Assembly (NCBI GenBank): GCA_035287045.1
Contig: DATECF010000256.1
Span: forward strand, 43,125 to 107,124
Source of the DNA: Gemmatimonadales bacterium
GTDB lineage: Bacteria > Gemmatimonadota > Gemmatimonadetes > Gemmatimonadales > GWC2-71-9
Reading direction: 5' to 3'
DNA length: 64,000 bases
Below the pieces are notes generated by a model. It was not told where the DNA came from, searched no databases, and was given only the letters and a program-made list of their open reading frames with translations. Each line of letters starts with the position of its first letter. The stretch's first letter is position 1. A program made the position numbers and the translations under genes. Of this stretch, positions 4,791 through 44,757 are shown piece after piece.

Positions 4791-4883
4791 GCTCCCCATC
4801 CCCCTCCATCCCCTTCCATCCCCTTCCATCCCCCAGGGGGATGAAGGGCGATGGAGGACGATGGAGGAGGATGGACGGCGATG
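4791..4883. repeat. 10-bp periodic imperfect palindrome: (CCATCCCCNT)x4 / (GATGGNNNNN)x5
   Basis: CCATC occurs at 4796, 4806, 4816 and 4826. The centre is CCCCCAGGGGG at about 4835. GATG occurs at 4840, 4850, 4860, 4870 and 4880. The arms pair over about 45 positions with a few mismatches. The last GATG holds the thyA ATG. Confidence 0.85.
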
Positions 4884-5675
4884 AAGCAGTACCTCGACCT
4901 CCTCCGCCACATCCTCGACCACGGGCGGCCCAAAGACGATCGCACGGGAACCGGCACGCTCAGTGTGTTCGGTCACCAGACGCGTTACGACCTGGGGAAC
5001 GGATTCCCCCTGCTCACCACCAAGAAGCTGCACTTCAAGTCCATCGCGTACGAGCTGCTTTGGTTCCTCCGGGGTGACACCAACGTCCGTTTCTTGAGGG
5101 AGCACGGCGTCACCATCTGGGACGAATGGGCGGACGAGCAGGGCGAGCTCGGGCCCGTCTACGGATACCAGTGGCGGTCCTGGCCCGCGCCGGACGGGCG
5201 CCACATCGACCAGATCGCCGCCGTGGTGGAGCAGATCCGCCAGAGCCCCAACTCCCGGCGCCTCATGGTCAGCGCGTGGAACGTGGCGGACATCCCCCGC
5301 ATGGCCCTGGCGCCCTGCCACGTGCTGTTCCAGTTCTACGTGGTGGCCGGCCGGTTATCGTGCCAGATGTACCAGCGGAGTGCGGACGTCTTCCTGGGCG
5401 TCCCGTTCAACATCGCGTCGTACGCATTGCTCACCCGGATGGTGGCGCAGGTGACCGGCCTAGCGCCCGGCGAGTTGGTGCACACGCTGGGCGATGCGCA
5501 TCTCTACGTGAACCACGTGGAGCAGGCCCGGCTGCAGCTCACCCGCGAGCCTCGGCCCCTGCCCACACTGCGGCTCAACCCCGACATCCCCGACCTGCCG
5601 GCGTTCCAGTTCGAGGACCTGGTGCTGGAGGGCTACCAGCCGCACCCGCACATTCCGGCGAAGGTGGCCGTCTGA
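4881..5675 (+). CDS. thyA: thymidylate synthase
   Basis: [24 protein letters not shown], the catalytic LAPCH, and the C-terminal IPAKVAV. The conserved N-terminus begins at ATG 4881 rather than the ORF-track 4851. Confidence 0.95.
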
Positions 5676-6169
5676 TCCTGTCGCTCATCGCCGCGATGGC
5701 CCAGAACCGGGTCATCGGGCGGGACAACGCACTCCCCTGGCACCTCCCCGCCGATCTCAAGCGATTCAAGGCGCTCACCATGGGGCACTCGGTGATCCTG
5801 GGGCGGAGGACCTTTGACGCCATCGGGAAGGCGCTGCCGGGCCGCCGGTGGATCGTCCTCACGCGCGAACGTGATTGGCGTCACAAAGGGGTGGAGGTCG
5901 CGCACGACCTGGACCAGGCGGTCCGCACGGTGGCGCATGAGGCCGAGGTGTTCGTGGCTGGTGGCGCCGAGGTGTACGCCCAGGCGCTGGAGCGGGCCGA
6001 TCGCATCTATCTCACCGTGATTCACGCCCACATCGAAGGTGACGCGCGCTTTCCGGAGATGGTGCCGGCCGAATGGAGGCTGCTCGAGGACGAGCGGCAC
6101 CCGGCCGACGAGCGGCACGCGCATCCCTTCAGCTTCCGGCGATACGAGCGCACGTCCAAGAGTCGCTGA
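5672..6169 (+). CDS. folA: dihydrofolate reductase
   Basis: [36 protein letters not shown] aligns with the extreme N-terminus of DHFRs (E. coli MISLIAALAVDRVIG), which implies a start at CTG 5672 overlapping the thyA TGA. The first canonical start is ATG 5696. The 347-aa ORF-track model is an artefact. Confidence 0.85.
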
Positions 6170-6175
6170 ACCCTA

Positions 6176-6204
6176 TTGCATATCTTCTCATCATTTCTTA
6201 TTCT
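6176..6204 (+). promoter_or_regulatory. candidate sigma-70-type promoter (TTGCAT-17 nt-TATTCT)
   Basis: It sits in the only AT-rich tract in this region (6170-6236). TTGCAT is at 6176-6181, followed by a 17-nt spacer and TATTCT at 6199-6204. GGAG lies 6 nt upstream of ATG 6237. Confidence 0.4.
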
Positions 6205-6236
6205 GTTGCAACGCGAAATACTTGATCCGGAGCGCG

Positions 6237-7316
6237 ATGCGCTTAGGGCTCGCATACAACCAACGACCAACCGCGATCAGTACGCGTCGCGACGCCGCTC
6301 TCTCCCCCCAAGCCCCCCTCACCACAGATCAATTCGTAGAATGGGACGAGCCTGAGACGATCGCCGCCGTCGCGGATGCGTTAGGCGTCTTGGGCGACGT
6401 CATGCCGCTCGAAGCGATCGGTGACTTTCCCCGTCGGCTGGCGGAGGCGCGCGTCGACCTGCTGTTCAACATGGCGGAAGGCGTCGCGGGGCCCAGCCGC
6501 GAGGCGCACGTGCCCGCGATCGCCGAATTCCTCGGCGTCCCCTACACGGCCAGCGACCCGCTGACCCTGGCCATCGCGCTCCATAAGGGCCGCACCAAAG
6601 AGCTGCTGCGGCAGCGCGGCGTGCCGACGCCGCCGTTCCTGCTGCTCGAGTCGTTCGGCGACCTGTCGCGGCTGGACGGCGTCGCGTATCCGCTGTTCCT
6701 CAAGCCGGCGTGGGAGGGCTCCTCCAAGGGGATCAGCGCCGCCAACCGGGTGGAGTCGCCGCGGGCCGCGAAGGCGCGCGCCGAGCATCTGCTGGCGTCG
6801 TATCACCAGCCGGTCCTGGCGGAAGCGTACCTGCCCGGTGAGGAATTCACGGTCGCGGTGCTGGGGAACCAGGACGATGCCCGGTGCCTGCCGCTCATTC
6901 GGTATCGCTTCGAGACGCTGCCTCAGGGCGCGCTGCCGATCATGGGCTTCGAAGCGAAATGGGTGTGGGACACGCCCGACGCCTCGCTGGAGGTGCTGGA
7001 ATGCCCGGCGGACATCGCCCCGGAGCCGGCCGAGCGGATCCAGGCCGTGGCACTCGCGGCCTATCGCGCCATCGGCTGCCGCGATTGGGGGCGGGTGGAC
7101 GTCCGGCTGGACGCCGAGGGCGTTCCTAACGTGCTGGAGATCAATCCGCTGCCGGGGATCATTCCGGACCCGGCGGCGAACAGCTGCTTCCCGCGCGCCG
7201 CGGGGGCGGCGGGGCTGTCATACGCCGAGCTGATCCAGACCGTGGTGCGGATCGCCTGGCGGCGCATCGCGGGACGGGAGCTGGCGGTATCCACCCTAGC
7301 CGGAGTCGCCGGCTGA
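6237..7316 (+). CDS. ATP-grasp ligase, D-alanine--D-alanine ligase-like (paralog 1)
   Basis: ATG 6237 is the first start after the folA stop. Motifs: LFNMAEG...REAHVPAIAEFLGVPYTAS, LHKGRTKELL, PLFLKPAWEGSSKGI, EEFTVAVLG, RVDVRLDAEGVPNVLEINPLPG. Confidence 0.85.
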   Translation: MRLGLAYNQRPTAISTRRDAALSPQAPLTTDQFVEWDEPETIAAVADALGVLGDVMPLEAIGDFPRRLAEARVDLLFNMAEGVAGPSREAHVPAIAEFLGVPYTASDPLTLAIALHKGRTKELLRQRGVPTPPFLLLESFGDLSRLDGVAYPLFLKPAWEGSSKGISAANRVESPRAAKARAEHLLASYHQPVLAEAYLPGEEFTVAVLGNQDDARCLPLIRYRFETLPQGALPIMGFEAKWVWDTPDASLEVLECPADIAPEPAERIQAVALAAYRAIGCRDWGRVDVRLDAEGVPNVLEINPLPGIIPDPAANSCFPRAAGAAGLSYAELIQTVVRIAWRRIAGRELAVSTLAGVAG

Positions 7317-8314
7317 GAGTCGCGATCCTGTACGACGGCGGCGCGAGCGACTGGAGCACGCAAGACATCCAGTCGGTGCTCGATCCGGTCAACCAGATCG
7401 GCGACCTCCTGTCATCGTTGGGCCATCGTGTGGTCCGCGTCCCGATGCACCACAACCTCAAGTGGTTGGATCACGTGCGCCGGTCCGACCTGGTGGTCAA
7501 CCTCTGTGAGGGGATCGGCGGCGTGAGCCGCTGGGAGTGCATGGTGGCGGGGACGCTGGAGCTCACCGGTGTCCCGTTCACCGGCGCCGGATGCTGGACC
7601 ATCACCACCTGCCACAACAAGTCCGTGGTCAACGCCCTGCTCCAGGCGGCCGGCCTGCCGGTCCCCCGGTGGCTGGTGCCGGTCGCCGGCAAAGTGCCGA
7701 GCGATTTCCCCCTGCCCGCCATCGTCAAGCCGGCGGCGGAGGACGCCAGCGTGGGTATCGACCAGGCCTCGGTGGTGACCAACCACCGGCAGCTCAAGCG
7801 GCGGGTGGCGTACGTCGAAAAGGAATACGGCTCCGCGCTGGTGCAGCAGTACATCGGCGGCCGGGAGTTCGCGGTGGGGATCGTGGGAAGCACCATCCTC
7901 CCGCTCTCGGAGATCGACTTCCGCGGCATGCCCGAGGGCACGTGGCCCATTCTGTCGTTCGACGCCAAGTGGACCAGCGGGTGTCCGGAGGACGTTGGGA
8001 GCCAGCCGGTGTGCCCGGCGCGGGTGGAGTCGTGGTTGGCCCGGCGGCTGCGGGCCGTGGCGCTGTCGGCGTGGCGGGCGGTGCGGGGGCAGGGCTACGG
8101 GCGGGTGGACCTCCGCGTGGACGCGTCCGGACAGCCGTGGATTCTCGAGGTGAACCCGAATCCGGACATCTCCGACGACGCCGGCCTGTCGCGCATGGCG
8201 CAGGCCGCCGGCTGGTCGTACGACGACCTGATCCTGCGCATGGTGGAGCTGGCCCGGTCCACGGATCGCCGGCCCCCGGCCGAGGCGCCGCCGCTGGAGG
8301 TCCGCACCGCGTGA
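7313..8314 (+). CDS. ATP-grasp ligase, D-alanine--D-alanine ligase-like (paralog 2)
   Basis: Motifs: VNLCEG, GVPFTG, CHNKSVVNALL, AIVKPAAEDASVGI, REFAVGIVG, RVDLRVDASGQPWILEVNPNPD. The family-typical N-terminal VAILYDGG is encoded at 7319-7342, upstream of the first canonical start (GTG 7376). This implies CTG 7313 overlapping the upstream TGA. Confidence 0.8.
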   Translation: MRVAILYDGGASDWSTQDIQSVLDPVNQIGDLLSSLGHRVVRVPMHHNLKWLDHVRRSDLVVNLCEGIGGVSRWECMVAGTLELTGVPFTGAGCWTITTCHNKSVVNALLQAAGLPVPRWLVPVAGKVPSDFPLPAIVKPAAEDASVGIDQASVVTNHRQLKRRVAYVEKEYGSALVQQYIGGREFAVGIVGSTILPLSEIDFRGMPEGTWPILSFDAKWTSGCPEDVGSQPVCPARVESWLARRLRAVALSAWRAVRGQGYGRVDLRVDASGQPWILEVNPNPDISDDAGLSRMAQAAGWSYDDLILRMVELARSTDRRPPAEAPPLEVRTA

Positions 8315-8832
8315 GCGTCTCGGCCCCCCCTCTCACGCTCCGGCCCCCCCGCCCGAGCGATCGGAGCCGCGTGGCCCGGATCGTGCGCGCCACCGGCGTG
8401 TTCCGCCCCGCGGAGGTGGACATCGCGCTGGAGGTGTTCGACGGCGCCACGGCCAAACCCGGCGTGGATTACCACGCCCTGGGCGCGTACGACGACGCCG
8501 ATCAGCTCATCGGATTCGCCTGCTACGGCGCTACGCCCGGCACCGAGGCTACCTGGGACCTGTACTGGATCGCCGTGGATCCCGGCATTCACCACCGCGG
8601 CGTTGGCCGCGCCCTGATGGCGGCCTGCGAGCGCGCGATCGCGGAGGCCGGTGGCCAGCTGGTGGTGGTGGAGACGTCGTCGCGACCGGATTACGACTCG
8701 ACGCGTGCGTTTTACCAGGCGCTGGCGTACGGGGCAACGGCGCGCATCCCTGACTTCTACGCGCCGCACGACGACCTCGTCGTGTACACCAAGCGGTTGG
8801 TTCCCTCTACCAGAGAACGACCACATGGCTGA
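8311..8832 (+). CDS. GNAT family N-acetyltransferase
   Basis: GTG 8311 overlaps the upstream TGA (GTGA). Acetyl-CoA motif: IAVDPGIHHRGVGRALMAACE. 173 aa. Confidence 0.85.
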   Translation: MSVSAPPLTLRPPRPSDRSRVARIVRATGVFRPAEVDIALEVFDGATAKPGVDYHALGAYDDADQLIGFACYGATPGTEATWDLYWIAVDPGIHHRGVGRALMAACERAIAEAGGQLVVVETSSRPDYDSTRAFYQALAYGATARIPDFYAPHDDLVVYTKRLVPSTRERPHG

Positions 8833-10000
8833 TTGGCAGAAACTCCTGCACCAGCGGAGCGTCGCCTCCCTCCAGCAGCTGGTGGCCAGGTTCGGGCGTG
8901 AGCAGTTCCCGGACCTGGACCGGCTGCAACAGGCGATCGACAACTTCGAGCTGAGGATCTCACCCGCCATGGTGGATCTGATCAAGGAGCCGGGCGATCC
9001 CATTTGGCGGCAGTACGTCCCGGACCTTCAGGAGCTGGATGTCGTGGACGGCGTCCCGGACAGCCTGAACGAAGATGACGATAGCCCGGTTCCCAACATC
9101 ACGCACCGCTATCCTGACCGGGCGCTGTTTCTGGTGAGCCCGGTGTGCGCCGCCTACTGCCGGTTCTGTACCCGCCGCCGCAAAGTGGGCGATCCCGAAA
9201 AGATCCCGATGTCGCAGTTCGAGAGCGCGTTCCGGTATCTGGCGGAACACACCGAGATCCGCGACGTGATCATGTCGGGCGGCGATCCCCTGCTCCTGTC
9301 CGACCGCCGGCTGGACCAAATCCTGGGCCGGCTCCGGCAGATCAAGCATATCGAGGTCGTCCGGATCGGCAGCCGGGTGCCGTGCCACCTGCCCGAGCGG
9401 ATCACGCCGGAGCTGTGCGCCACGTTGAAGAAGTACCATCCGCTGTACCTCAACACGCACTTCAACCACCCGGACGAGCTGACGCCCGCGGCAGTGAAGG
9501 GCCTGGGGCTCCTGGCGGACGCGGGCGTGCCCCTGGGGTGCCAGACGGTCCTGCTGAAGGGCGTGAACGACGATCCGGATGTCATGAAGGAGCTGATGCA
9601 GCGGTTGCTCGCCGCGCGCGTCCGGCCCTACTACATCTACATGTGCGACCAGGTGGCCGGCGCGGAGCATTTCAAGACATCGGTCGAGACCGGACTGGAG
9701 ATCATCAAGGCGCTGCGCGGATGGACCAGCGGGCTCGCGGTGCCGCATTTCGTGATCGACGCGCCGGGGGGCGGCGGGAAGATCCCGCTGCTGCCGGAGT
9801 ACGTGGTGCGCATCACCGAAGACGAAGTAGTGCTGCGGAACTACCGCGGCAAGCGCTACGTGTGGAAGCAGCCGCGCGAGGAGGAATCGCTGGTCGGCGC
9901 GGGGGTGCGGGAGCCGGAATACGACTTTCTACCCACCTTTGAAGCCGCGCAGAACGCCAAGAACGGGAAGAAACGCAAACGCAACAAGCGGGTCGCGTAG
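8825..10000 (+). CDS. kamA: lysine 2,3-aminomutase (KamA family radical SAM/PLP enzyme)
   Basis: SPVPNITHRYPDRALFLV, the radical-SAM triad CAAYCRFC, SGGDPLL, YLNTHFNHP, RPYYIYMCD, VIDAPGGGGK. Collinear with clostridial KamA as I remember it. ATG 8825 overlaps the GNAT gene by 8 nt. Confidence 0.9.
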   Translation: MADWQKLLHQRSVASLQQLVARFGREQFPDLDRLQQAIDNFELRISPAMVDLIKEPGDPIWRQYVPDLQELDVVDGVPDSLNEDDDSPVPNITHRYPDRALFLVSPVCAAYCRFCTRRRKVGDPEKIPMSQFESAFRYLAEHTEIRDVIMSGGDPLLLSDRRLDQILGRLRQIKHIEVVRIGSRVPCHLPERITPELCATLKKYHPLYLNTHFNHPDELTPAAVKGLGLLADAGVPLGCQTVLLKGVNDDPDVMKELMQRLLAARVRPYYIYMCDQVAGAEHFKTSVETGLEIIKALRGWTSGLAVPHFVIDAPGGGGKIPLLPEYVVRITEDEVVLRNYRGKRYVWKQPREEESLVGAGVREPEYDFLPTFEAAQNAKNGKKRKRNKRVA

Positions 10001-10017
10001 GGGCGGTTTGCAAATGC

Positions 10018-10054
10018 GTGAGGGGTGAGGGGTCCCCTTCCCCATCACCCCTTA
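10018..10054. terminator. hairpin of inverted heptamer arrays between convergent genes
   Basis: (GTGAGGG)x2 then CCCCTTC-CCCATCA-CCCCTTA. AGGGGTGA at 10021-10028 pairs perfectly with TCACCCCT at 10045-10052. It lies between the kamA stop (10000) and the EF-G stop (10074). Confidence 0.5.
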
Positions 10055-10073
10055 CGCCGTCCGCTGTTGCACG

Positions 10074-12173
10074 TCATTTCTTGTCGGCCTCTTCGAGCTC
10101 CTTCTTCCTCGCCTCGATGACCTTCGCCGCCACCTCCGGCGGCACGTCCTGATATGCGTGGAATTTCTGGCGGTAGGTCCCGCGGCCGTGCGTAATCGAG
10201 TGGAGCTGCGTGGCGTATCGATCCAGCTCGGCCTCCGGCACGAGGGCGCGGATCTTGCTCATCCGCCCGTCGGCCTCGGTACCGAGAATCTGGCCACGGC
10301 GGGACGAAAGGTCCCCCATGACCGCGCCCAGATACTCTTCGGGCGTCCAGGCTTCAACCTCCACGATAGGCTCCAGCAGCACCGGCTTCGCGTTGGGCGT
10401 CACGTTCCGGAACGCCAGGATGCCGGCCATCTTGAACGACATTTCGTTGGAGTCGACGTCGTGGTAGGAGCCGTCGTATAACTCCACCTTGAAGTCCACC
10501 ATGGGGTAGCCAGCCACCGGGCCCCGGGCCGTGGCCTCAATGATCCCCTTCTCAACGGCCGGGATATACTGCCGCGGGATCACGCCGCCCACGATGTTGT
10601 CTTCGAACACCAGCCCTGAGCCCCGCGCCAGCGGCGCTACCCGAATCCAGCAGTCGCCGTATTGCCCGCGGCCACCGGTCTGCTTTTTGTGCTTGCCCTG
10701 ACCCTCCGCCCTGCCCTTCAGGGTCTCCCGATATGCGATCTTGGGTTTTCCCAGGGTCGCGTGGACCCCGAACTTGCGGGCCAACCGACCTACGATGATC
10801 TCCAGGTGCCGCTCGCCGCGGCCCCGCATCAAGGTCTGGCCCAGCTCCGCGTTGTACTCGTGATGGAACGTGGGGTCTTCCTCGTGCAGGCGCTGGAGTC
10901 CGGTGTTGAGCTTGTCCTCTTCGCCCCGCTGCTTCACCTCCACCGACAGGGTGATCACCGGGTCGGGGAACGGGATCTTGGGCAGGACGATGGGCTGCTC
11001 CTTGGTGGAGAGCGTATCGTTGGTATGGGTGTCGCGCAGCTTCGCGACCACGCCAATGTCGCCCGCGTGCAGCTCGGGGGCCTCGGTGCGTTCCTTGCCC
11101 AGCGCCACCGACAAGTGATTGAGCTTCTCCGATGCCGAGCGGGGGGCGTTGTATACCTCGGCCCCGTTCTTCACCAGCCCCGAGTAGACGCGGAAGAACG
11201 TCACATCGCCGACGTGGGGCTCGGACACCGTCTTGAAAACCTGCGCCACGAACGGACCGTCGTCCTTGAACGCCAGGGACACGGGCTTGGGGTCGCCCCA
11301 CATCTGGCCTTCCACGCCTTCGCGCTCGACCGGCGCGGGAACCAGCTCCACCAACGCCGTGAGCAGGGCGCGCGTCCCGTAGGTCAGCTCGCTCGCCCCG
11401 CACAGCAGGGGATAGATCTCCCCGCGGGCGACACCGGCGTGCATCGCCCTGGTCAGCTCGTCCGACGACAGCTCCTCGCCACCCAGGTATCGCTCCAGCA
11501 GCGCGTCGTCCGTCGAGGCGATGGCCTCCACCAGGTCCTGCTCGTAGCGGTCGAACTGCGCCTTCAACTCGGTCGGGACCTCCTGTTCGTCGTACTCGCC
11601 CGTCTTGCTGCCCTGGCGGTACACATGGGCTTTCGTGGTGAGCAGGTTGACGATCCCGTGGAACTGGGAGCCCGCGCCGACCGGGATCTCGATGGGCAGC
11701 ACCTTCGAGCTCACATTGGTCTTGATGTCCTGATAGACCTTCTCGAAATCCGCGTGCTCTTTGTCCATCAGTGACACGTAGAACAGACGTGGAATCCCGC
11801 GCTGTTCGGCGTGCTCCCAGGCCTGCTCGGTGCCGACCTCGACGCCGGCGGTACTGCTCACCACGATCAGGGCGGCATCGGCCGCGTAGATCGCCGCGAT
11901 CGCGTCGCCCAGGAAGTCGAGATACCCGGGCGCGTCAAGCAGATTGATCTTGGTGTCCATCCACTCGGCGTAGGCCAGCCCCAAGCTGATGGAATACTTC
12001 CGTTCGATTTCGTCGGGGGTGTAGTTGGTGAGGGCGCTGCCGTCCTTGACGGAGCCATGCCGCTTGCTGGTGCCGGCCACGAACGCCAGGGCGTCTACCA
12101 AACTCGTCTTGCCGCTCTGGCCGTGGCCGACCACCGCGACATTCCGGATGGCTTCTCCTGTGTACACGCGCAC
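10074..12173 (-). CDS. elongation factor G paralog (EF-G2-like translational GTPase)
   Basis: G1 motif VGHGQSGKTS, DAPGYLDF, and EF-G domains II-V are recognisable (RGRGERHLEI, GGRGQYGDC, SNEMSFKMAG). It is not in a str operon context. Confidence 0.9.
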   Translation of the reverse strand: MRVYTGEAIRNVAVVGHGQSGKTSLVDALAFVAGTSKRHGSVKDGSALTNYTPDEIERKYSISLGLAYAEWMDTKINLLDAPGYLDFLGDAIAAIYAADAALIVVSSTAGVEVGTEQAWEHAEQRGIPRLFYVSLMDKEHADFEKVYQDIKTNVSSKVLPIEIPVGAGSQFHGIVNLLTTKAHVYRQGSKTGEYDEQEVPTELKAQFDRYEQDLVEAIASTDDALLERYLGGEELSSDELTRAMHAGVARGEIYPLLCGASELTYGTRALLTALVELVPAPVEREGVEGQMWGDPKPVSLAFKDDGPFVAQVFKTVSEPHVGDVTFFRVYSGLVKNGAEVYNAPRSASEKLNHLSVALGKERTEAPELHAGDIGVVAKLRDTHTNDTLSTKEQPIVLPKIPFPDPVITLSVEVKQRGEEDKLNTGLQRLHEEDPTFHHEYNAELGQTLMRGRGERHLEIIVGRLARKFGVHATLGKPKIAYRETLKGRAEGQGKHKKQTGGRGQYGDCWIRVAPLARGSGLVFEDNIVGGVIPRQYIPAVEKGIIEATARGPVAGYPMVDFKVELYDGSYHDVDSNEMSFKMAGILAFRNVTPNAKPVLLEPIVEVEAWTPEEYLGAVMGDLSSRRGQILGTEADGRMSKIRALVPEAELDRYATQLHSITHGRGTYRQKFHAYQDVPPEVAAKVIEARKKELEEADKK

Positions 12174-12261: not shown

Positions 12262-14142
12262 TCACCGGTACCCGGCCGCCTGCAGGTTAAACAGCTCCGC
12301 GTACAACCCGCCCCGCCCTACCAGCTCCTGGTGCGTCCCGTGCTCCACCAACCGCCCGCCCGTCAGCACCAGAATCCGGTCCGCCATCCGAACGGTGGAG
12401 AAGCGATGGGAAATGAGGACCGCGATTCTCCCTTTGGTGAGCTCGGTGAACCTGAGGAATACCTCGTATTCGGCGCGGGCATCCAGCGCCGCCGTGGGTT
12501 CGTCCAAGATCAGGACCTGGGCCTCGCGCAGGTAGGCGCGCGCCAGCGCCACCTTCTGCCACTCGCCGCCGGACAGGTCCACCCCGTCATCGAAGCGGCG
12601 GCCCAGTTGCTGGTCGAACCCCTTGCTCAACCGTTTGGCAACCGTGTCCGCCAGGCTGCGCCGCGCCGCCTCCCGGACCCGGTCATCCTGAGACATGTAC
12701 TCCGTCTGCCCCACGCCGATGTTCTCGCGGAACAGAAACGCGTAGCGCATGAAGTCCTGGAAGATGACGCCGATGTTCGCGTGCAAGCCGGCCAGGTCGT
12801 ACTCCCGCAGGTCCACGCCGTCCAGCAGGATCCGGCCCTCGTCCGGGTCGTAGAGCCGGGCCAGGAGCTTCACCAGCGTGGTCTTGCCGGCCCCGTTTTC
12901 CCCCACCAGCGCCACCGATTCGTCCGGCGCCAGCGAAAACGAGAGGTCGCGCACGGCCCACACGTCCGACCCCGGGTACTTGAAGCTCACCCGTTCGAAG
13001 TCGAACCCTCGGCCGATGGGCCGCGGCAGGGCCCTGGCCCCCGGCCTGGAGACCACCCGTGGTTGGAGCGCCAGAAACGTGAACAGGTCGCGGAGATAGA
13101 GACTCTCCTCATACACGCTCGAGAGCATCAGGAGCACGCGCTGAATGAGGTCCCGGCTCTGCCGGAAGGAGCCTGCGAGGAAGGTGAGCACCCCGATGGT
13201 GAACGGTCCCGCCGGGGACTGATACCCAGTCACCGTGAGGTAGATGATCACACCGTAGGCGCCGTAGTACCCCAGCGAGCCCACGCCGGCGAGCAGCGTG
13301 GAGACCGAAGCCCGCTTGATCGAGAGGCGCTTGTTGATTTCGTAGAACTCGTCCGCCAGGCGGCGATAGCGTCCAATCAAGTAGGGCGACAGGCCAAAGA
13401 GCTTCACCTCCTTGGCGGCCTGGTCGCTTGCCGCCGTGAACCGGAGGTAGTCCAGCATGCGCCGCTCCGGGGTCCACTGGAACAGCAGCGAGTAGCCCAG
13501 GGCGGCGAAGTGGGTTTCGCCGAGGAATGCCGGAATCACGGCGATCGCCAGCAGCACGAGGAGCCACGGGACGTACACCAGCAACGCCAGCGTCAGCGAC
13601 ACCAGGGTGATCAGGTCCTGCACCGTCCCCAGGAGTTGGGCCACCAGGCCGATGCGTCCGACGGTCTGCCGCCGGGCCCGCTCCAGGTGATCGTAGGTCT
13701 CGGCGTCCTCGAACTGGGCGACATCCAGCCTGGCGGCGTGCTCCATCAGCCGGACCGAGATGCGGTTGGAGAAGAGATCGCCCAGGAGGCTCTCCAGGAG
13801 GGATGACGCCCGCGCCAGGCCCTCGCCGCCGACGGCAATAGCCAGCTCGACGCCCACCAGCAGCCCAAGCTGCCCCCAATCCACCGGTTGCTCCCCTCGG
13901 TACGAGGCCTCGACCGCCTCGATGATCAACTTGCCGATCCACAGGAGCCCCAACGGCACCACCGCGCGCACCACGCGCAGGCCCACGATGGCCGCGGTGT
14001 AGCCACGGTGCGTCTCATACACCATCTTGAGGAGCGGCGGCACGTGCTTCAGGGCGGCGAGCCGGTCGGGCCAATTGGGGAGTTGGTCCGGCGTCAGTCG
14101 GCTTCGAGGCCGGCGGGGAAAGGGAATGAAGGGGCCCGTCAC
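12262..14142 (-). CDS. ABC transporter, fused permease/ATP-binding exporter (MsbA/ABCB type)
   Basis: Six-TM domain, then Walker A GENGAGKTT, signature LSGGEWQKVALARA and Walker B LILDEPT. I chose GTG 14142 so the N-terminus does not run through the divergent promoter. The ORF-track start at 14361 is unlikely. Confidence 0.85.
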   Translation of the reverse strand: MTGPFIPFPRRPRSRLTPDQLPNWPDRLAALKHVPPLLKMVYETHRGYTAAIVGLRVVRAVVPLGLLWIGKLIIEAVEASYRGEQPVDWGQLGLLVGVELAIAVGGEGLARASSLLESLLGDLFSNRISVRLMEHAARLDVAQFEDAETYDHLERARRQTVGRIGLVAQLLGTVQDLITLVSLTLALLVYVPWLLVLLAIAVIPAFLGETHFAALGYSLLFQWTPERRMLDYLRFTAASDQAAKEVKLFGLSPYLIGRYRRLADEFYEINKRLSIKRASVSTLLAGVGSLGYYGAYGVIIYLTVTGYQSPAGPFTIGVLTFLAGSFRQSRDLIQRVLLMLSSVYEESLYLRDLFTFLALQPRVVSRPGARALPRPIGRGFDFERVSFKYPGSDVWAVRDLSFSLAPDESVALVGENGAGKTTLVKLLARLYDPDEGRILLDGVDLREYDLAGLHANIGVIFQDFMRYAFLFRENIGVGQTEYMSQDDRVREAARRSLADTVAKRLSKGFDQQLGRRFDDGVDLSGGEWQKVALARAYLREAQVLILDEPTAALDARAEYEVFLRFTELTKGRIAVLISHRFSTVRMADRILVLTGGRLVEHGTHQELVGRGGLYAELFNLQAAGYR

Positions 14143-22910: not shown

Positions 22911-23149
22911 CGGCGGCCGTCCATCACCTCGTACAGCCCCGCCGTATCGTCGAGGTCCACGCCGGGGAGGGTGCCGCCGCGGCCGGAACGGGGCAGATCC
23001 GGTGGAGTCTCGAGGGGAGCCCGAGCCGGGCGAGCCAAGTACGCCAATAGGGCCTCCCGGAACACCAGCGTCATCGTCTTCCCCTGGCGGACCGCGTACT
23101 GCTTGACCTTGCGCAGTAGATGCTCATCGAGCCGGACCGTCGTTCTCAT
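22907..23149 (-). CDS. vapB: type II antitoxin (VapB-like, RHH/DUF2191-type)
   Basis: 80 aa starting MRTTVRLDEHLLRKVKQYA, from ATG 23149. The 247-aa ORF-track model is an upstream read-through artefact. Confidence 0.75.
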   Translation of the reverse strand: MRTTVRLDEHLLRKVKQYAVRQGKTMTLVFREALLAYLARPARAPLETPPDLPRSGRGGTLPGVDLDDTAGLYEVMDGRR

Positions 23150-23190
23150 ATGTCGAAATGTCTTATGCTGACATAAAGATGTCAACTGCC
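23150..23190. promoter_or_regulatory. candidate vapBC operator/promoter
   Basis: An AT-rich tract directly upstream of vapB carries ATGTC x3 plus GACAT, including ATGTC-7 nt-GACAT (tcATATGTCgaaATGTCttatgctGACATaaagATGTCaac). Confidence 0.4.
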
Positions 23191-23230
23191 ACGCGATTGC
23201 CCGGTCATCCCTCCTACCTTTCGGACCATC

Positions 23231-44327: not shown

Positions 44328-44379
44328 GATGATGGACCCACAATCTATGCCCGGGACCCGTGCCCGGGCGCGCCAAGGA

Positions 44380-44407
44380 TTGCAATATCAATATTACTTG
44401 ATATATT
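44380..44407 (+). promoter_or_regulatory. candidate arsR promoter with embedded operator palindrome
   Basis: TTGCAA (44380-85), a 16-nt spacer, then TATATT (44402-07). The inverted repeat ATATCAA (44385-91) / TTGATAT (44398-404) overlaps the spacer and the -10 element. The arsR ATG at 44416 is only about 8 nt past the -10. Confidence 0.5.
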
Positions 44408-44415
44408 GAACGTCA

Positions 44416-44757
44416 ATGGTACGATTCAGCCAAGCCGACCGGCGGCGGTTGGCCCGGTGTTGCCACGCCCTCTCGGACGACACCCGGCTCCGGATCCTGG
44501 AGCGGCTCTCGGCCGGTGAGCGTTGCGTGTGCGAGTTGACCGCGGCGCTGGGCGCCGGGCAATCTCGGTTGTCCTTCCACCTGAAGGCGTTGAAGGACGC
44601 CGGGCTGGTGCGGGATCGGCGTGAGGGGCGCTGGATGTACTACTCGCTCAACCCGGAGGCGGTCTCCGAGGCGAGGCGGCTGCTGGAGCTGGTCGCGGCG
44701 AAACCACAACACCAGTTGCCTGTGCTGGCGTCATCAGCGCCTCCTTCGGCACTTTAA
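44416..44757 (+). CDS. arsR: ArsR/SmtB family metalloregulator
   Basis: [15 protein letters not shown], the metal-site CVCEL, and the [13 protein letters not shown] recognition helix. Confidence 0.9.

Follow-up and report, generated by a model that had tools for sequence, protein, structure and literature searches.

In PylB/PylC, a radical S-adenosylmethionine (radical-SAM) lysine mutase is paired with a Ddl-like ligase that acylates the epsilon-amine of lysine. GNAT enzymes and ATP-grasp ligases meet in the Ngg/AsnO pathway, where Ngg (GNAT + ATP-grasp) makes the osmolyte N-acetylglutaminylglutamine amide (NAGGN), and in mammals, where NAT8L and RIMKLA/B make N-acetylaspartylglutamate. The aminomutase and acetyltransferase AblA and AblB produce N-epsilon-acetyl-beta-lysine, according to a 2003 paper (PMC201229). 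Here we describe a cluster of four genes in a 64-kb stretch of DNA from an uncultured Gemmatimonadales bacterium (contig DATECF010000256.1; the whole stretch of 64,000 nucleotides (nt) is referred to as the window) that encodes two Ddl-like ATP-grasp ligases, designated AG1 and AG2, a GNAT protein and a KamA-type lysine 2,3-aminomutase (LAM). As far as computation goes, the evidence supports the view that the four enzymes make up a module which is widespread, coherent in its evolution and so far uncharacterised, and which would join beta-lysine metabolism to two novel ligases of the Ddl branch.

The four open reading frames (ORFs), as read from the sequence, are co-directional and follow one another in the order AG1-AG2-GNAT-KamA from position 6237 to 10000. 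The initial annotation of the window had described them as joined by CTGA, GTGA and 8-nt overlaps, and every one of its coordinates agrees with the sequence; the GNAT/KamA junction reads ATGGCTGA (8825-8832). Its author knew of no biochemically characterised pathway with such a composition, and none was found in the literature: the papers covered, which did not include the 2009 in-silico amidoligase survey of Iyer et al., contain no description of the module, and those dealing with KamA in Pelobacter or with EF-P modification discuss only ablAB or yjeK.

The locus resembles each of the described systems in part. Like ablAB, it has a KamA-type aminomutase gene beside a GNAT gene; the intermediate is likely to be beta-lysine, and the end group an acetylated amine. 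It differs from ablAB in that the GNAT belongs to another family (2R7H), two ATP-grasp ligases are a constant part of the module, in some cases as fusions with KamA, and KamA falls under the AblA equivalog cutoff with its C-terminal domain mostly gone. As in PylB/PylC, a radical-SAM mutase would supply a non-proteinogenic diamino acid and a Ddl/CPS-type ATP-grasp ligase would form an amide; PylB, however, is a methylornithine synthase and not a 2,3-aminomutase, and the module has two ligases and a GNAT but no PylD. PylC was not retrieved by AG1 or AG2 in a sequence search of the PDB (E <= 1e-3). With Ngg/AsnO and NAT8L/RIMKLA/B the module shares the combination of a GNAT with ATP-grasp ligation to give a small N-acetylated cytoplasmic peptide, whereas those ligases are of the RimK/cyanophycin-synthetase type, use Gln, Glu or Asp and are not accompanied by an aminomutase; no sequence relationship to either system was detected. 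In EpmB/EpmA, too, the beta-lysine for an ATP-dependent ligation comes from an aminomutase of the KamA family that lacks the clostridial C-terminal domain, but the module's KamA scores well under the EpmB cutoff (230 against 369 bits), its ligases are ATP-grasp enzymes rather than LysRS paralogs, and neither efp nor epmA is present in the window or accompanies the module.

The distribution of the module was followed in a genome scan that used an 8-sequence alignment as seed and one genome per species, and from which the best 80 of 593 relatives were taken as loci (L-numbers below); 75 of the 80 had enough flanking sequence to be evaluated. The order AG1-AG2-GNAT-KamA is complete in 61 of these 75. 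Carriers fall into at least seven phylum-level groups (Gemmatimonadota, Ignavibacteria/Melioribacter, Kryptonia, Chlorobiaceae, Bacteroidota, Acidobacteriota and Desulfuromonadales), and the nearest homologs of AG1 (63-91% identity) come, where a source is named, almost all from Gemmatimonadota. By starting from the 2R7H family, a permuted order, KamA-AG-AG-GNAT, was reached in four places: Desulfovibrio mangrovi, the contig encoding protein P0271, Woeseia, where the second ligase gene seems fragmented, and one further 3.7-Mb genome. A sigma-54 activator lies upstream of the module in both Desulfovibrio-type loci. A protein search of 1.84 billion representatives returned 1064 clusters at E <= 1e-30, and among the best 150 of these are 40 AG~AG tandem fusions and five fusions between KamA and an AG1-type ligase (KamA~AG or AG~KamA); on metagenome contigs, relatives of one fused AG1~AG2 protein are located between KamA and GNAT. 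Adjacency that survives permutation of the order, together with the fusions, strongly indicates that all four proteins take part in a single process, and since the AG1-type ligase is the paralog that is fused to KamA, AG1 is the one expected to handle the aminomutase product. The comparison across genomes that the initial annotation had suggested finds co-occurrence conserved over several phyla, in two gene orders and in fusions. The computational checks it had suggested all turned out to favour its reading.

The genes that flank the module vary by lineage and are housekeeping genes, thyA, folA and EF-G in Gemmatimonadota and recG, plsY, gpsA and NAD kinase in Ignavibacteria; within Gemmatimonadota the module is inherited vertically. 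Clustering of the ORFs of 25 loci (L059-L083, mostly non-Gemmatimonadota) found no gene for a transporter, carrier protein or precursor peptide that travels with it. There is no efp homolog in the window, and efp and epmA are not among the conserved neighbours. In 90 loci, mur or fts genes never stand beside the ligases, and KamA and/or GNAT are always nearby. PADLOC gave 0 matches for all four proteins. The convergent EF-G paralog was considered as a partner and rejected, as its adjacency is restricted to Gemmatimonadota.

KamA is expected, on strong homology, to turn L-lysine into beta-lysine. The protein matches the Pfam families Radical_SAM and LAM_C, the latter at profile positions 1-59 of 127 only, and aligns with the Clostridium subterminale lysine 2,3-aminomutase (2A5H) at E 2e-111. 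In that alignment C125/C129/C132, R134, D293, D330 and K337 are conserved, so that the CxxxCxxC radical-SAM cluster (CAAYCRFC), the pyridoxal phosphate (PLP) lysine K337 (DAPGGGGK) and the carboxylate-binding R134 are all in place; the motifs that had been claimed for the protein, CAAYCRFC, THRYPDR and DAPGGGGK, are indeed present. The key residues are kept in 69-74 of 74 module aminomutases, and Asp293 and Asp330 occur together in 69 of 70 aligned module KamAs as well as in that of the window. These two aspartates, the ligands of lysine's epsilon-ammonium group, are reportedly lysine-specific and replaced in glutamate 2,3-aminomutase (Lepore 2005; Ruzicka & Frey 2007). KamA passes the KamA-family model TIGR00238 (281 bits, cutoff 199.2) and scores 440.7 bits with the AblA equivalog TIGR03820, 384.8 bits with the glutamate 2,3-aminomutase model and 230.3 bits with the EpmB model TIGR03821 (cutoff 369.3). 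As between KamA/AblA and EpmB, an assignment that the initial annotation had left to be checked, the protein therefore comes out on the KamA/AblA side (440 against 230 bits, with Asp293/Asp330 present). The module KamAs as a group are without most of the clostridial C-terminal domain, and many end in a K/R-rich tail, for example KNGKKRKRNKRVA; such a tail is seen in the window (9940-9997) and in L004, L006, L037, L079 and L081.

The two ligases belong to the fold of DdlA/DdlB and the VanA family but depart from these enzymes in sequence. They have the three-domain ATP-grasp fold and the ATP, Mg and catalytic residues of Ddl, are expected to couple two amino-acid-like substrates by an acyl-phosphate mechanism, and differ in their low identity (22-33%), changed substrate residues, insertions at the omega-loop and the absence of mur/fts context. 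Both match Pfam PF07478 (Dala_Dala_lig_C; AG1 E 1e-32, AG2 E 1e-28), yet they fall 80-100 bits short of the NCBIfam Ddl cutoffs: AG1 and AG2 reach 165 and 138.1 bits with NF002378 (cutoff 243) and 132.7 and 125.2 bits with TIGR01205 (cutoff 245.65). By tblastn, AG1 is 32% and AG2 33% identical to Escherichia coli DdlB, and the two are 36% identical to each other; in the alignment they share insertions around the omega-loop that DdlB lacks. The best-scoring solved relatives of both in the PDB sequence search are Ddl enzymes throughout. AlphaFold (AF2) models have a predicted local distance difference test score (pLDDT) of 85.6 for AG1 and 85.3 for AG2, and a Foldseek search, run on the AG1 model only, returned Ddl enzymes as all of the top 50 PDB matches, with template modelling (TM) scores of 0.7-0.8 at 21-28% identity. 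Pfam (E <= 0.01) gave no match to a RimK-type model for either protein; the matches are Dala_Dala_lig_C, ATP-grasp_3/4 and, below cutoff, TTL and YheCD, the weak, sub-threshold TTL match being that of AG2.

Residues were compared in about 70 AG1 and 64 AG2 sequences with DdlB numbering; the E. coli DdlB sequence used for this mapping agrees with the PDB alignment over residues 71-305, and the LAM sequence agrees with the 2A5H alignment over the part compared. DdlB K97, K144, E187, K215, R255, D257, E270 and N272 are kept in at least 61 of about 64-72 members of each family, and because these ATP, Mg and catalytic residues are retained both proteins should be active. The set that binds D-Ala in Ddl (the E15-S150-Y216 triad, H63 and S281/L282) is not maintained. 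Y216 is replaced by W in AG1 and AG2 alike. AG1 further shows H63E, E68R and L282C, and it keeps S150, G276 and S281 together with an acidic residue at the E15 position; AG2 shows S150A, G276D, S281A and L282G. AG1 and AG2 are thus probably active ligases with specificities unlike Ddl and unlike each other. The placement of the ATP-grasp proteins, for which true Ddl, RimK and other clades had been considered, comes out as a Ddl fold without membership of bona fide Ddl, RimK or GshB, as judged by scores, substrate residues and shared insertions. Residues 14-32 of AG1 (6276-6330) form a low-complexity insert of variable length, about 10-60 amino acids (aa) across AG1 proteins, which lies between strand 1 and the conserved E-W-D-x-x-x-T motif and is predicted to be disordered (pLDDT < 50) in the AF2 model.

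The GNAT protein matches PF00583/PF13508 and carries the acetyl-CoA motif RGVGRAL. Its small size (173 aa) had been noted in comparison with the ablA/ablB scheme, and it gives no match to the AblB model TIGR03827 at E <= 0.01. It belongs instead to the same family as PDB entry 2R7H ('putative D-alanine N-acetyltransferase of GNAT family'; E 8e-32), from Oleidesulfovibrio alaskensis G20. No function assigned to 2R7H was found in the literature, where the protein is known only as a solved structure. P0271, which is 99% identical to it, is encoded in a KamA-AG-AG-GNAT cluster, and the molecule name of 2R7H appears to derive from neighbouring 'Ddl' annotations. Public sources call members of both ligase families (P0004, P0016-P0120, P0408-P0482) 'D-alanine--D-alanine ligase', and the nearest homologs of AG1 bear either this name or hypothetical protein; the ligase label and that of 2R7H are probably wrong and have been propagated.

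In three of the four places with permuted order there is an extra deacetylase gene. Its product in these proteobacterial versions, of about 580 aa, combines a GNAT-like region at the N-terminus with an acetylpolyamine-amidohydrolase-like domain, which matches solved acetylpolyamine amidohydrolases at E 1e-63 to 1e-66, with HDAC6 also among the matches. No such gene occurs in the window or in any of the 80 AG1-type loci. A partner resembling acetylpolyamine amidohydrolases suggests a small molecule that bears an acetylated aliphatic amine, and this favours a metabolite over a protein target.

With moderate confidence, the operon can be read as a self-contained pathway that leads from lysine through beta-lysine and an ATP-grasp amide to a small N-acetylated metabolite of the cytoplasm, for instance an osmolyte or a polyamine-like substance. 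Homology identifies AG1 and AG2 as ATP-dependent carboxylate-amine ligases and GNAT as an acyl-CoA-dependent N-acyltransferase. The radical-SAM/PLP enzyme KamA would first make beta-lysine from L-lysine. AG1 would then couple beta-lysine, with the use of ATP, to a second amino acid, which may be another beta-lysine; it keeps the acidic residue at the E15 position, which in Ddl serves the donor amine, and Ser281/Gly276, which serve the acceptor carboxylate. AG2, in which acceptor residues are lost (S281A, L282G) and an Asp is gained (G276D), would make a second and chemically different amide, which may extend the product or acylate the other amino group of beta-lysine. GNAT would acetylate a primary amine that is left over, probably the one at the epsilon position. 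What results would be a charge-balanced beta-lysine peptide with an N-acetyl group, a cytoplasmic solute that may act as an osmo- or desiccation protectant or in a polyamine-like role; in the Proteobacteria the acetylpolyamine-amidohydrolase-like enzyme would take the acetyl group off again. Given the precedents of AblA/AblB, Ngg and PylB/PylC, an N-acetylated beta-lysine peptide that serves as a stress solute or polyamine-like compound is the most economical reading.

Several observations weigh against it. Of the 75 evaluable loci, seven lack KamA in cis (L011, L012, L014, L017, L022, L027, L076), four lack GNAT (L034, L038, L044, L051) and three have other arrangements; in such reduced modules the absent gene may sit elsewhere in the genome, or the chemistry may differ. 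In L025, from a Gemmatimonadales metagenome-assembled genome (MAG), the place of KamA after GNAT is taken by a very divergent KamA-family radical-SAM protein of 462 aa (12700-14088), which reaches 162 bits with AblA and shares 29% identity with the KamA of the window. As some loci are thus without KamA or have a divergent one, beta-lysine may not be obligatory in every lineage. The score of KamA itself with the AblA equivalog lies below the cutoff of 525.4 bits, and most of its C-terminal domain is missing. Among the named relatives of GNAT the best are the protein N-alpha-acetyltransferases RimI and Ard1, at weak scores (the best NCBIfam match, RimI, reaches 31.8 bits with a cutoff of 86.4), and HDAC-type deacetylases can act on proteins too. 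A search that covered the 64-kb window only found no further Ddl homolog within it. The substrate assignments for AG1, AG2 and GNAT hang on a few residues and on gene order, and, as many carriers are MAGs from soil or groundwater and not halophiles, an osmolyte role is no more than a guess.

A bolder formulation, which we hold to be doubtful, is that the two dedicated ATP-grasp ligases make a previously unknown class of beta-lysine compound, perhaps an N-acetylated oligo-beta-lysine or mixed pseudopeptide that soil Gemmatimonadota and the FCB group would use as a major stress solute or in place of polyamines, or, more radically, that they place an EpmA-independent beta-lysyl tag on protein.

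Among the other explanations, modification of a protein or peptide survives best, although it is unlikely. The ligases would put beta-lysine or a short beta-lysine tail on a protein carboxylate or lysine side chain, in the manner of RimK/TTL or, independently of EpmA, on a translation factor, and GNAT and the HDAC-like enzyme would form a protein acetylase/deacetylase pair. The matches of GNAT to RimI and Ard1, which are protein N-terminal acetyltransferases, the sub-threshold TTL match of AG2, the presence of HDAC6 among the deacetylase matches and the convergence of the Gemmatimonadota operon with an EF-G paralog are all consistent with this, and KamA shares with EpmB the lack of the C-terminal domain (PMC2821294). 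Yet the ligases are of the Ddl type, whose solved members couple amino acids in free form; AG1 retains the acid at the E15 position and Ser281, KamA scores with KamA/AblA and not with EpmB, and the deacetylase is matched best by acetylpolyamine amidohydrolases, which act on small molecules. The module is accompanied in no lineage by a gene for a target or a carrier or by efp/epmA, and the EF-G adjacency is found in Gemmatimonadota only.

It is quite improbable that the module makes a template-independent polymer, either a chain of beta-lysine units (oligo- or poly-beta-lysine) or a nitrogen-rich, branched one resembling cyanophycin, which acetylation would cap or prime. Two distinct ligase sites, often fused in one polypeptide, would suit such a product, and cyanophycin synthetase likewise carries two ligase sites; beta-lysine also offers two amines for chain growth, and some versions of the module include a deacetylase. 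On the other hand, conserved genes in cis include none for a depolymerase, an exporter or a granule-associated protein, there is no sequence sign of processivity, and the known oligo-beta-lysine chains (streptothricin, poly-beta-lysine) come from enzymes of the nonribosomal peptide synthetase (NRPS) type.

A plain ablAB system with passenger ligases, or a streptothricin-like antibiotic cluster in which GNAT confers self-resistance, is less probable again. Streptothricin acetyltransferases are small GNATs that act on the beta-lysine amine. Both this and the KamA-beside-GNAT pattern known from ablAB (PMC201229) speak for such a reading. Against it, no part of the module is more constant than the ligases, several lineages have them fused to KamA, and the AblB model is not matched by GNAT; in Gemmatimonadota, moreover, the genes pass on vertically in a housekeeping neighbourhood that holds neither an exporter nor NRPS or other tailoring genes. 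Least probable of all is a role in the cell envelope, with specialised Ddl paralogs making an alternative peptidoglycan dipeptide (for example, with a beta-lysine terminus) or modifying an envelope precursor. Ddl is the closest family in sequence and fold and databases use the D-alanine--D-alanine ligase label, but the proteins score 80-100 bits under the Ddl cutoffs, carry Y216W and, in AG2, S150A/S281A/L282G, have KamA and/or GNAT and no mur/fts genes as neighbours in 90 loci, and are in part fused to KamA, which is hard to square with a wall role.

The AG2 frame opens at a CTG codon (L/M-RVAILYDGG...), and this non-canonical start is well supported, because the overlap at the junction is conserved, a GGAG sequence lies upstream and the first strand of the protein requires it. 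All 14 related loci that were compared join AG1 to AG2 by a 4-nt NTGA overlap, in most of them ATGA, GTGA or TTGA; CTGA is shared by the window with L004, L005 and L007, the three nearest to it. The GGAG sits 7 nt 5' of the CTG, and in a complete Gemmatimonadota genome the gene caller gives a 333-aa AG2 product. Residues 2-8 form the first beta-strand of the N-terminal domain in the AF2 model. GTG 7376, the next canonical codon, was considered as an alternative start and rejected, as it would remove the conserved N-terminus and this strand. The CTGA junction of the window, L004, L005 and L007 appears to be a clear natural example of CTG serving as a start codon through translational coupling.

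The AT-rich tract that had been noted ahead of the cluster is real: 60-nt tracts below 45% GC occur at just three places in the window, one of which is 6142-6240 (minimum 35%). The remaining two, 23126-23202 (minimum 42%) and 44361-44445 (minimum 33%), may be further promoters or regulatory regions. The promoter claimed within the first tract, TTGCAT-17-TATTCT, is present and agrees with the sigma-70 consensus at 7 of 12 positions, though a simple sigma-70 consensus scan called no promoter. The pattern ATTG(C/T)NN-17 nt-TA(T/A)NNT, expected 0.0046 times per 250 nt, is found upstream of AG1 in 25 Gemmatimonadota loci in which the sequence around it has diverged. As hexamers and the exact 17-nt spacer are conserved in Gemmatimonadota, the promoter call is accepted as better than chance. 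In L004-L053 the element takes the form ATTGC(A/G)N-17 nt-TAT(T/C)(G/C)T, often with an A-run 5' of it. Directly 3' of the -10 hexamer there is a palindrome, GTTGCAAC, whose counterpart in L004-L008 is GTTGCGCAAC; the two forms are possibly an operator.

Between the same promoter and AG1 the leader is longer in L009, L010, L013, L015, L016, L019, L020, L029 and L032. These longer leaders have, about 30-100 nt 5' of AG1 and immediately before the Shine-Dalgarno (SD) sequence, a GC hairpin followed by a T-run, for example GACCGCG...CGCGGCCTTTTTT, which looks like an attenuator that the window does not have. The short leader of the window gave no significant RNA fold (z -0.67), and Rfam found no RNA family in the window. 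At the other end of the operon, KamA and the convergent EF-G-like gene are separated by a GC-rich hairpin that has no T-run. The RNA fold of 10001-10075 has -41.4 kcal/mol (z -4.9), with none of 200 shuffles equally stable, and the hairpin is probably a bidirectional terminator at the operon end. From promoter to terminator the region is predicted to be one compact transcription unit holding all four genes. An ABC transporter gene is also found downstream, convergent like the EF-G paralog. The features are collected in Table 1.

Table 1. Location of the genes and regulatory features of the module and its surroundings (positions in the window unless a locus is named).
Feature	Location	Strand	Remarks
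AG1	6237-7316	+	359 aa; ATG start; TGA 7314-7316; SD GGAG 6229-6232
AG2	7313-8314	+	333 aa; CTG start within AG1 stop (CTGA); SD GGAG 7302-7305
GNAT	8311-8832	+	173 aa; GTG start within AG2 stop (GTGA 8311-8314)
KamA	8825-10000	+	391 aa; ATG start; stop 9998-10000; 8-nt overlap with GNAT gene
Promoter (predicted)	6176-6204	+	-35 TTGCAT 6176-6181; 17-nt spacer; -10 TATTCT 6199-6204; in AT-rich tract 6142-6240
Palindrome GTTGCAAC	6205-6212	+	directly 3' of -10; candidate operator; from upstream-region alignment
GC-rich hairpin (probable terminator)	10018-10055		between KamA and convergent EF-G-like gene; no T-run
thyA	4851-5675		upstream of module
folA	5675-6169		upstream of module
EF-G paralog	10074-12173		downstream, convergent with KamA
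Accessory deacetylase gene	L084 8629-10386		
Accessory deacetylase gene	L086 6268-8004		
Accessory deacetylase gene	L085 6505-8001		

The module is tractable, as it consists of four genes, one component has been crystallised, and there are cultured carriers (Melioribacter isolates, Desulfovibrio mangrovi, D. psychrotolerans and O. alaskensis G20, the source of 2R7H). If the proposed pathway is true, the Ddl branch of the ATP-grasp enzymes would gain two new specificities, and the locus would be the second case in nature, after PylB/PylC, in which a lysine mutase of the radical-SAM type is linked to a Ddl-like ligase. Many bacteria of soil, sediment and the subsurface would then make an undescribed lysine-derived compound. 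Gemmatimonadota are known from dry soils, and a stress solute or polyamine-like metabolite of this kind would bear on their survival there.

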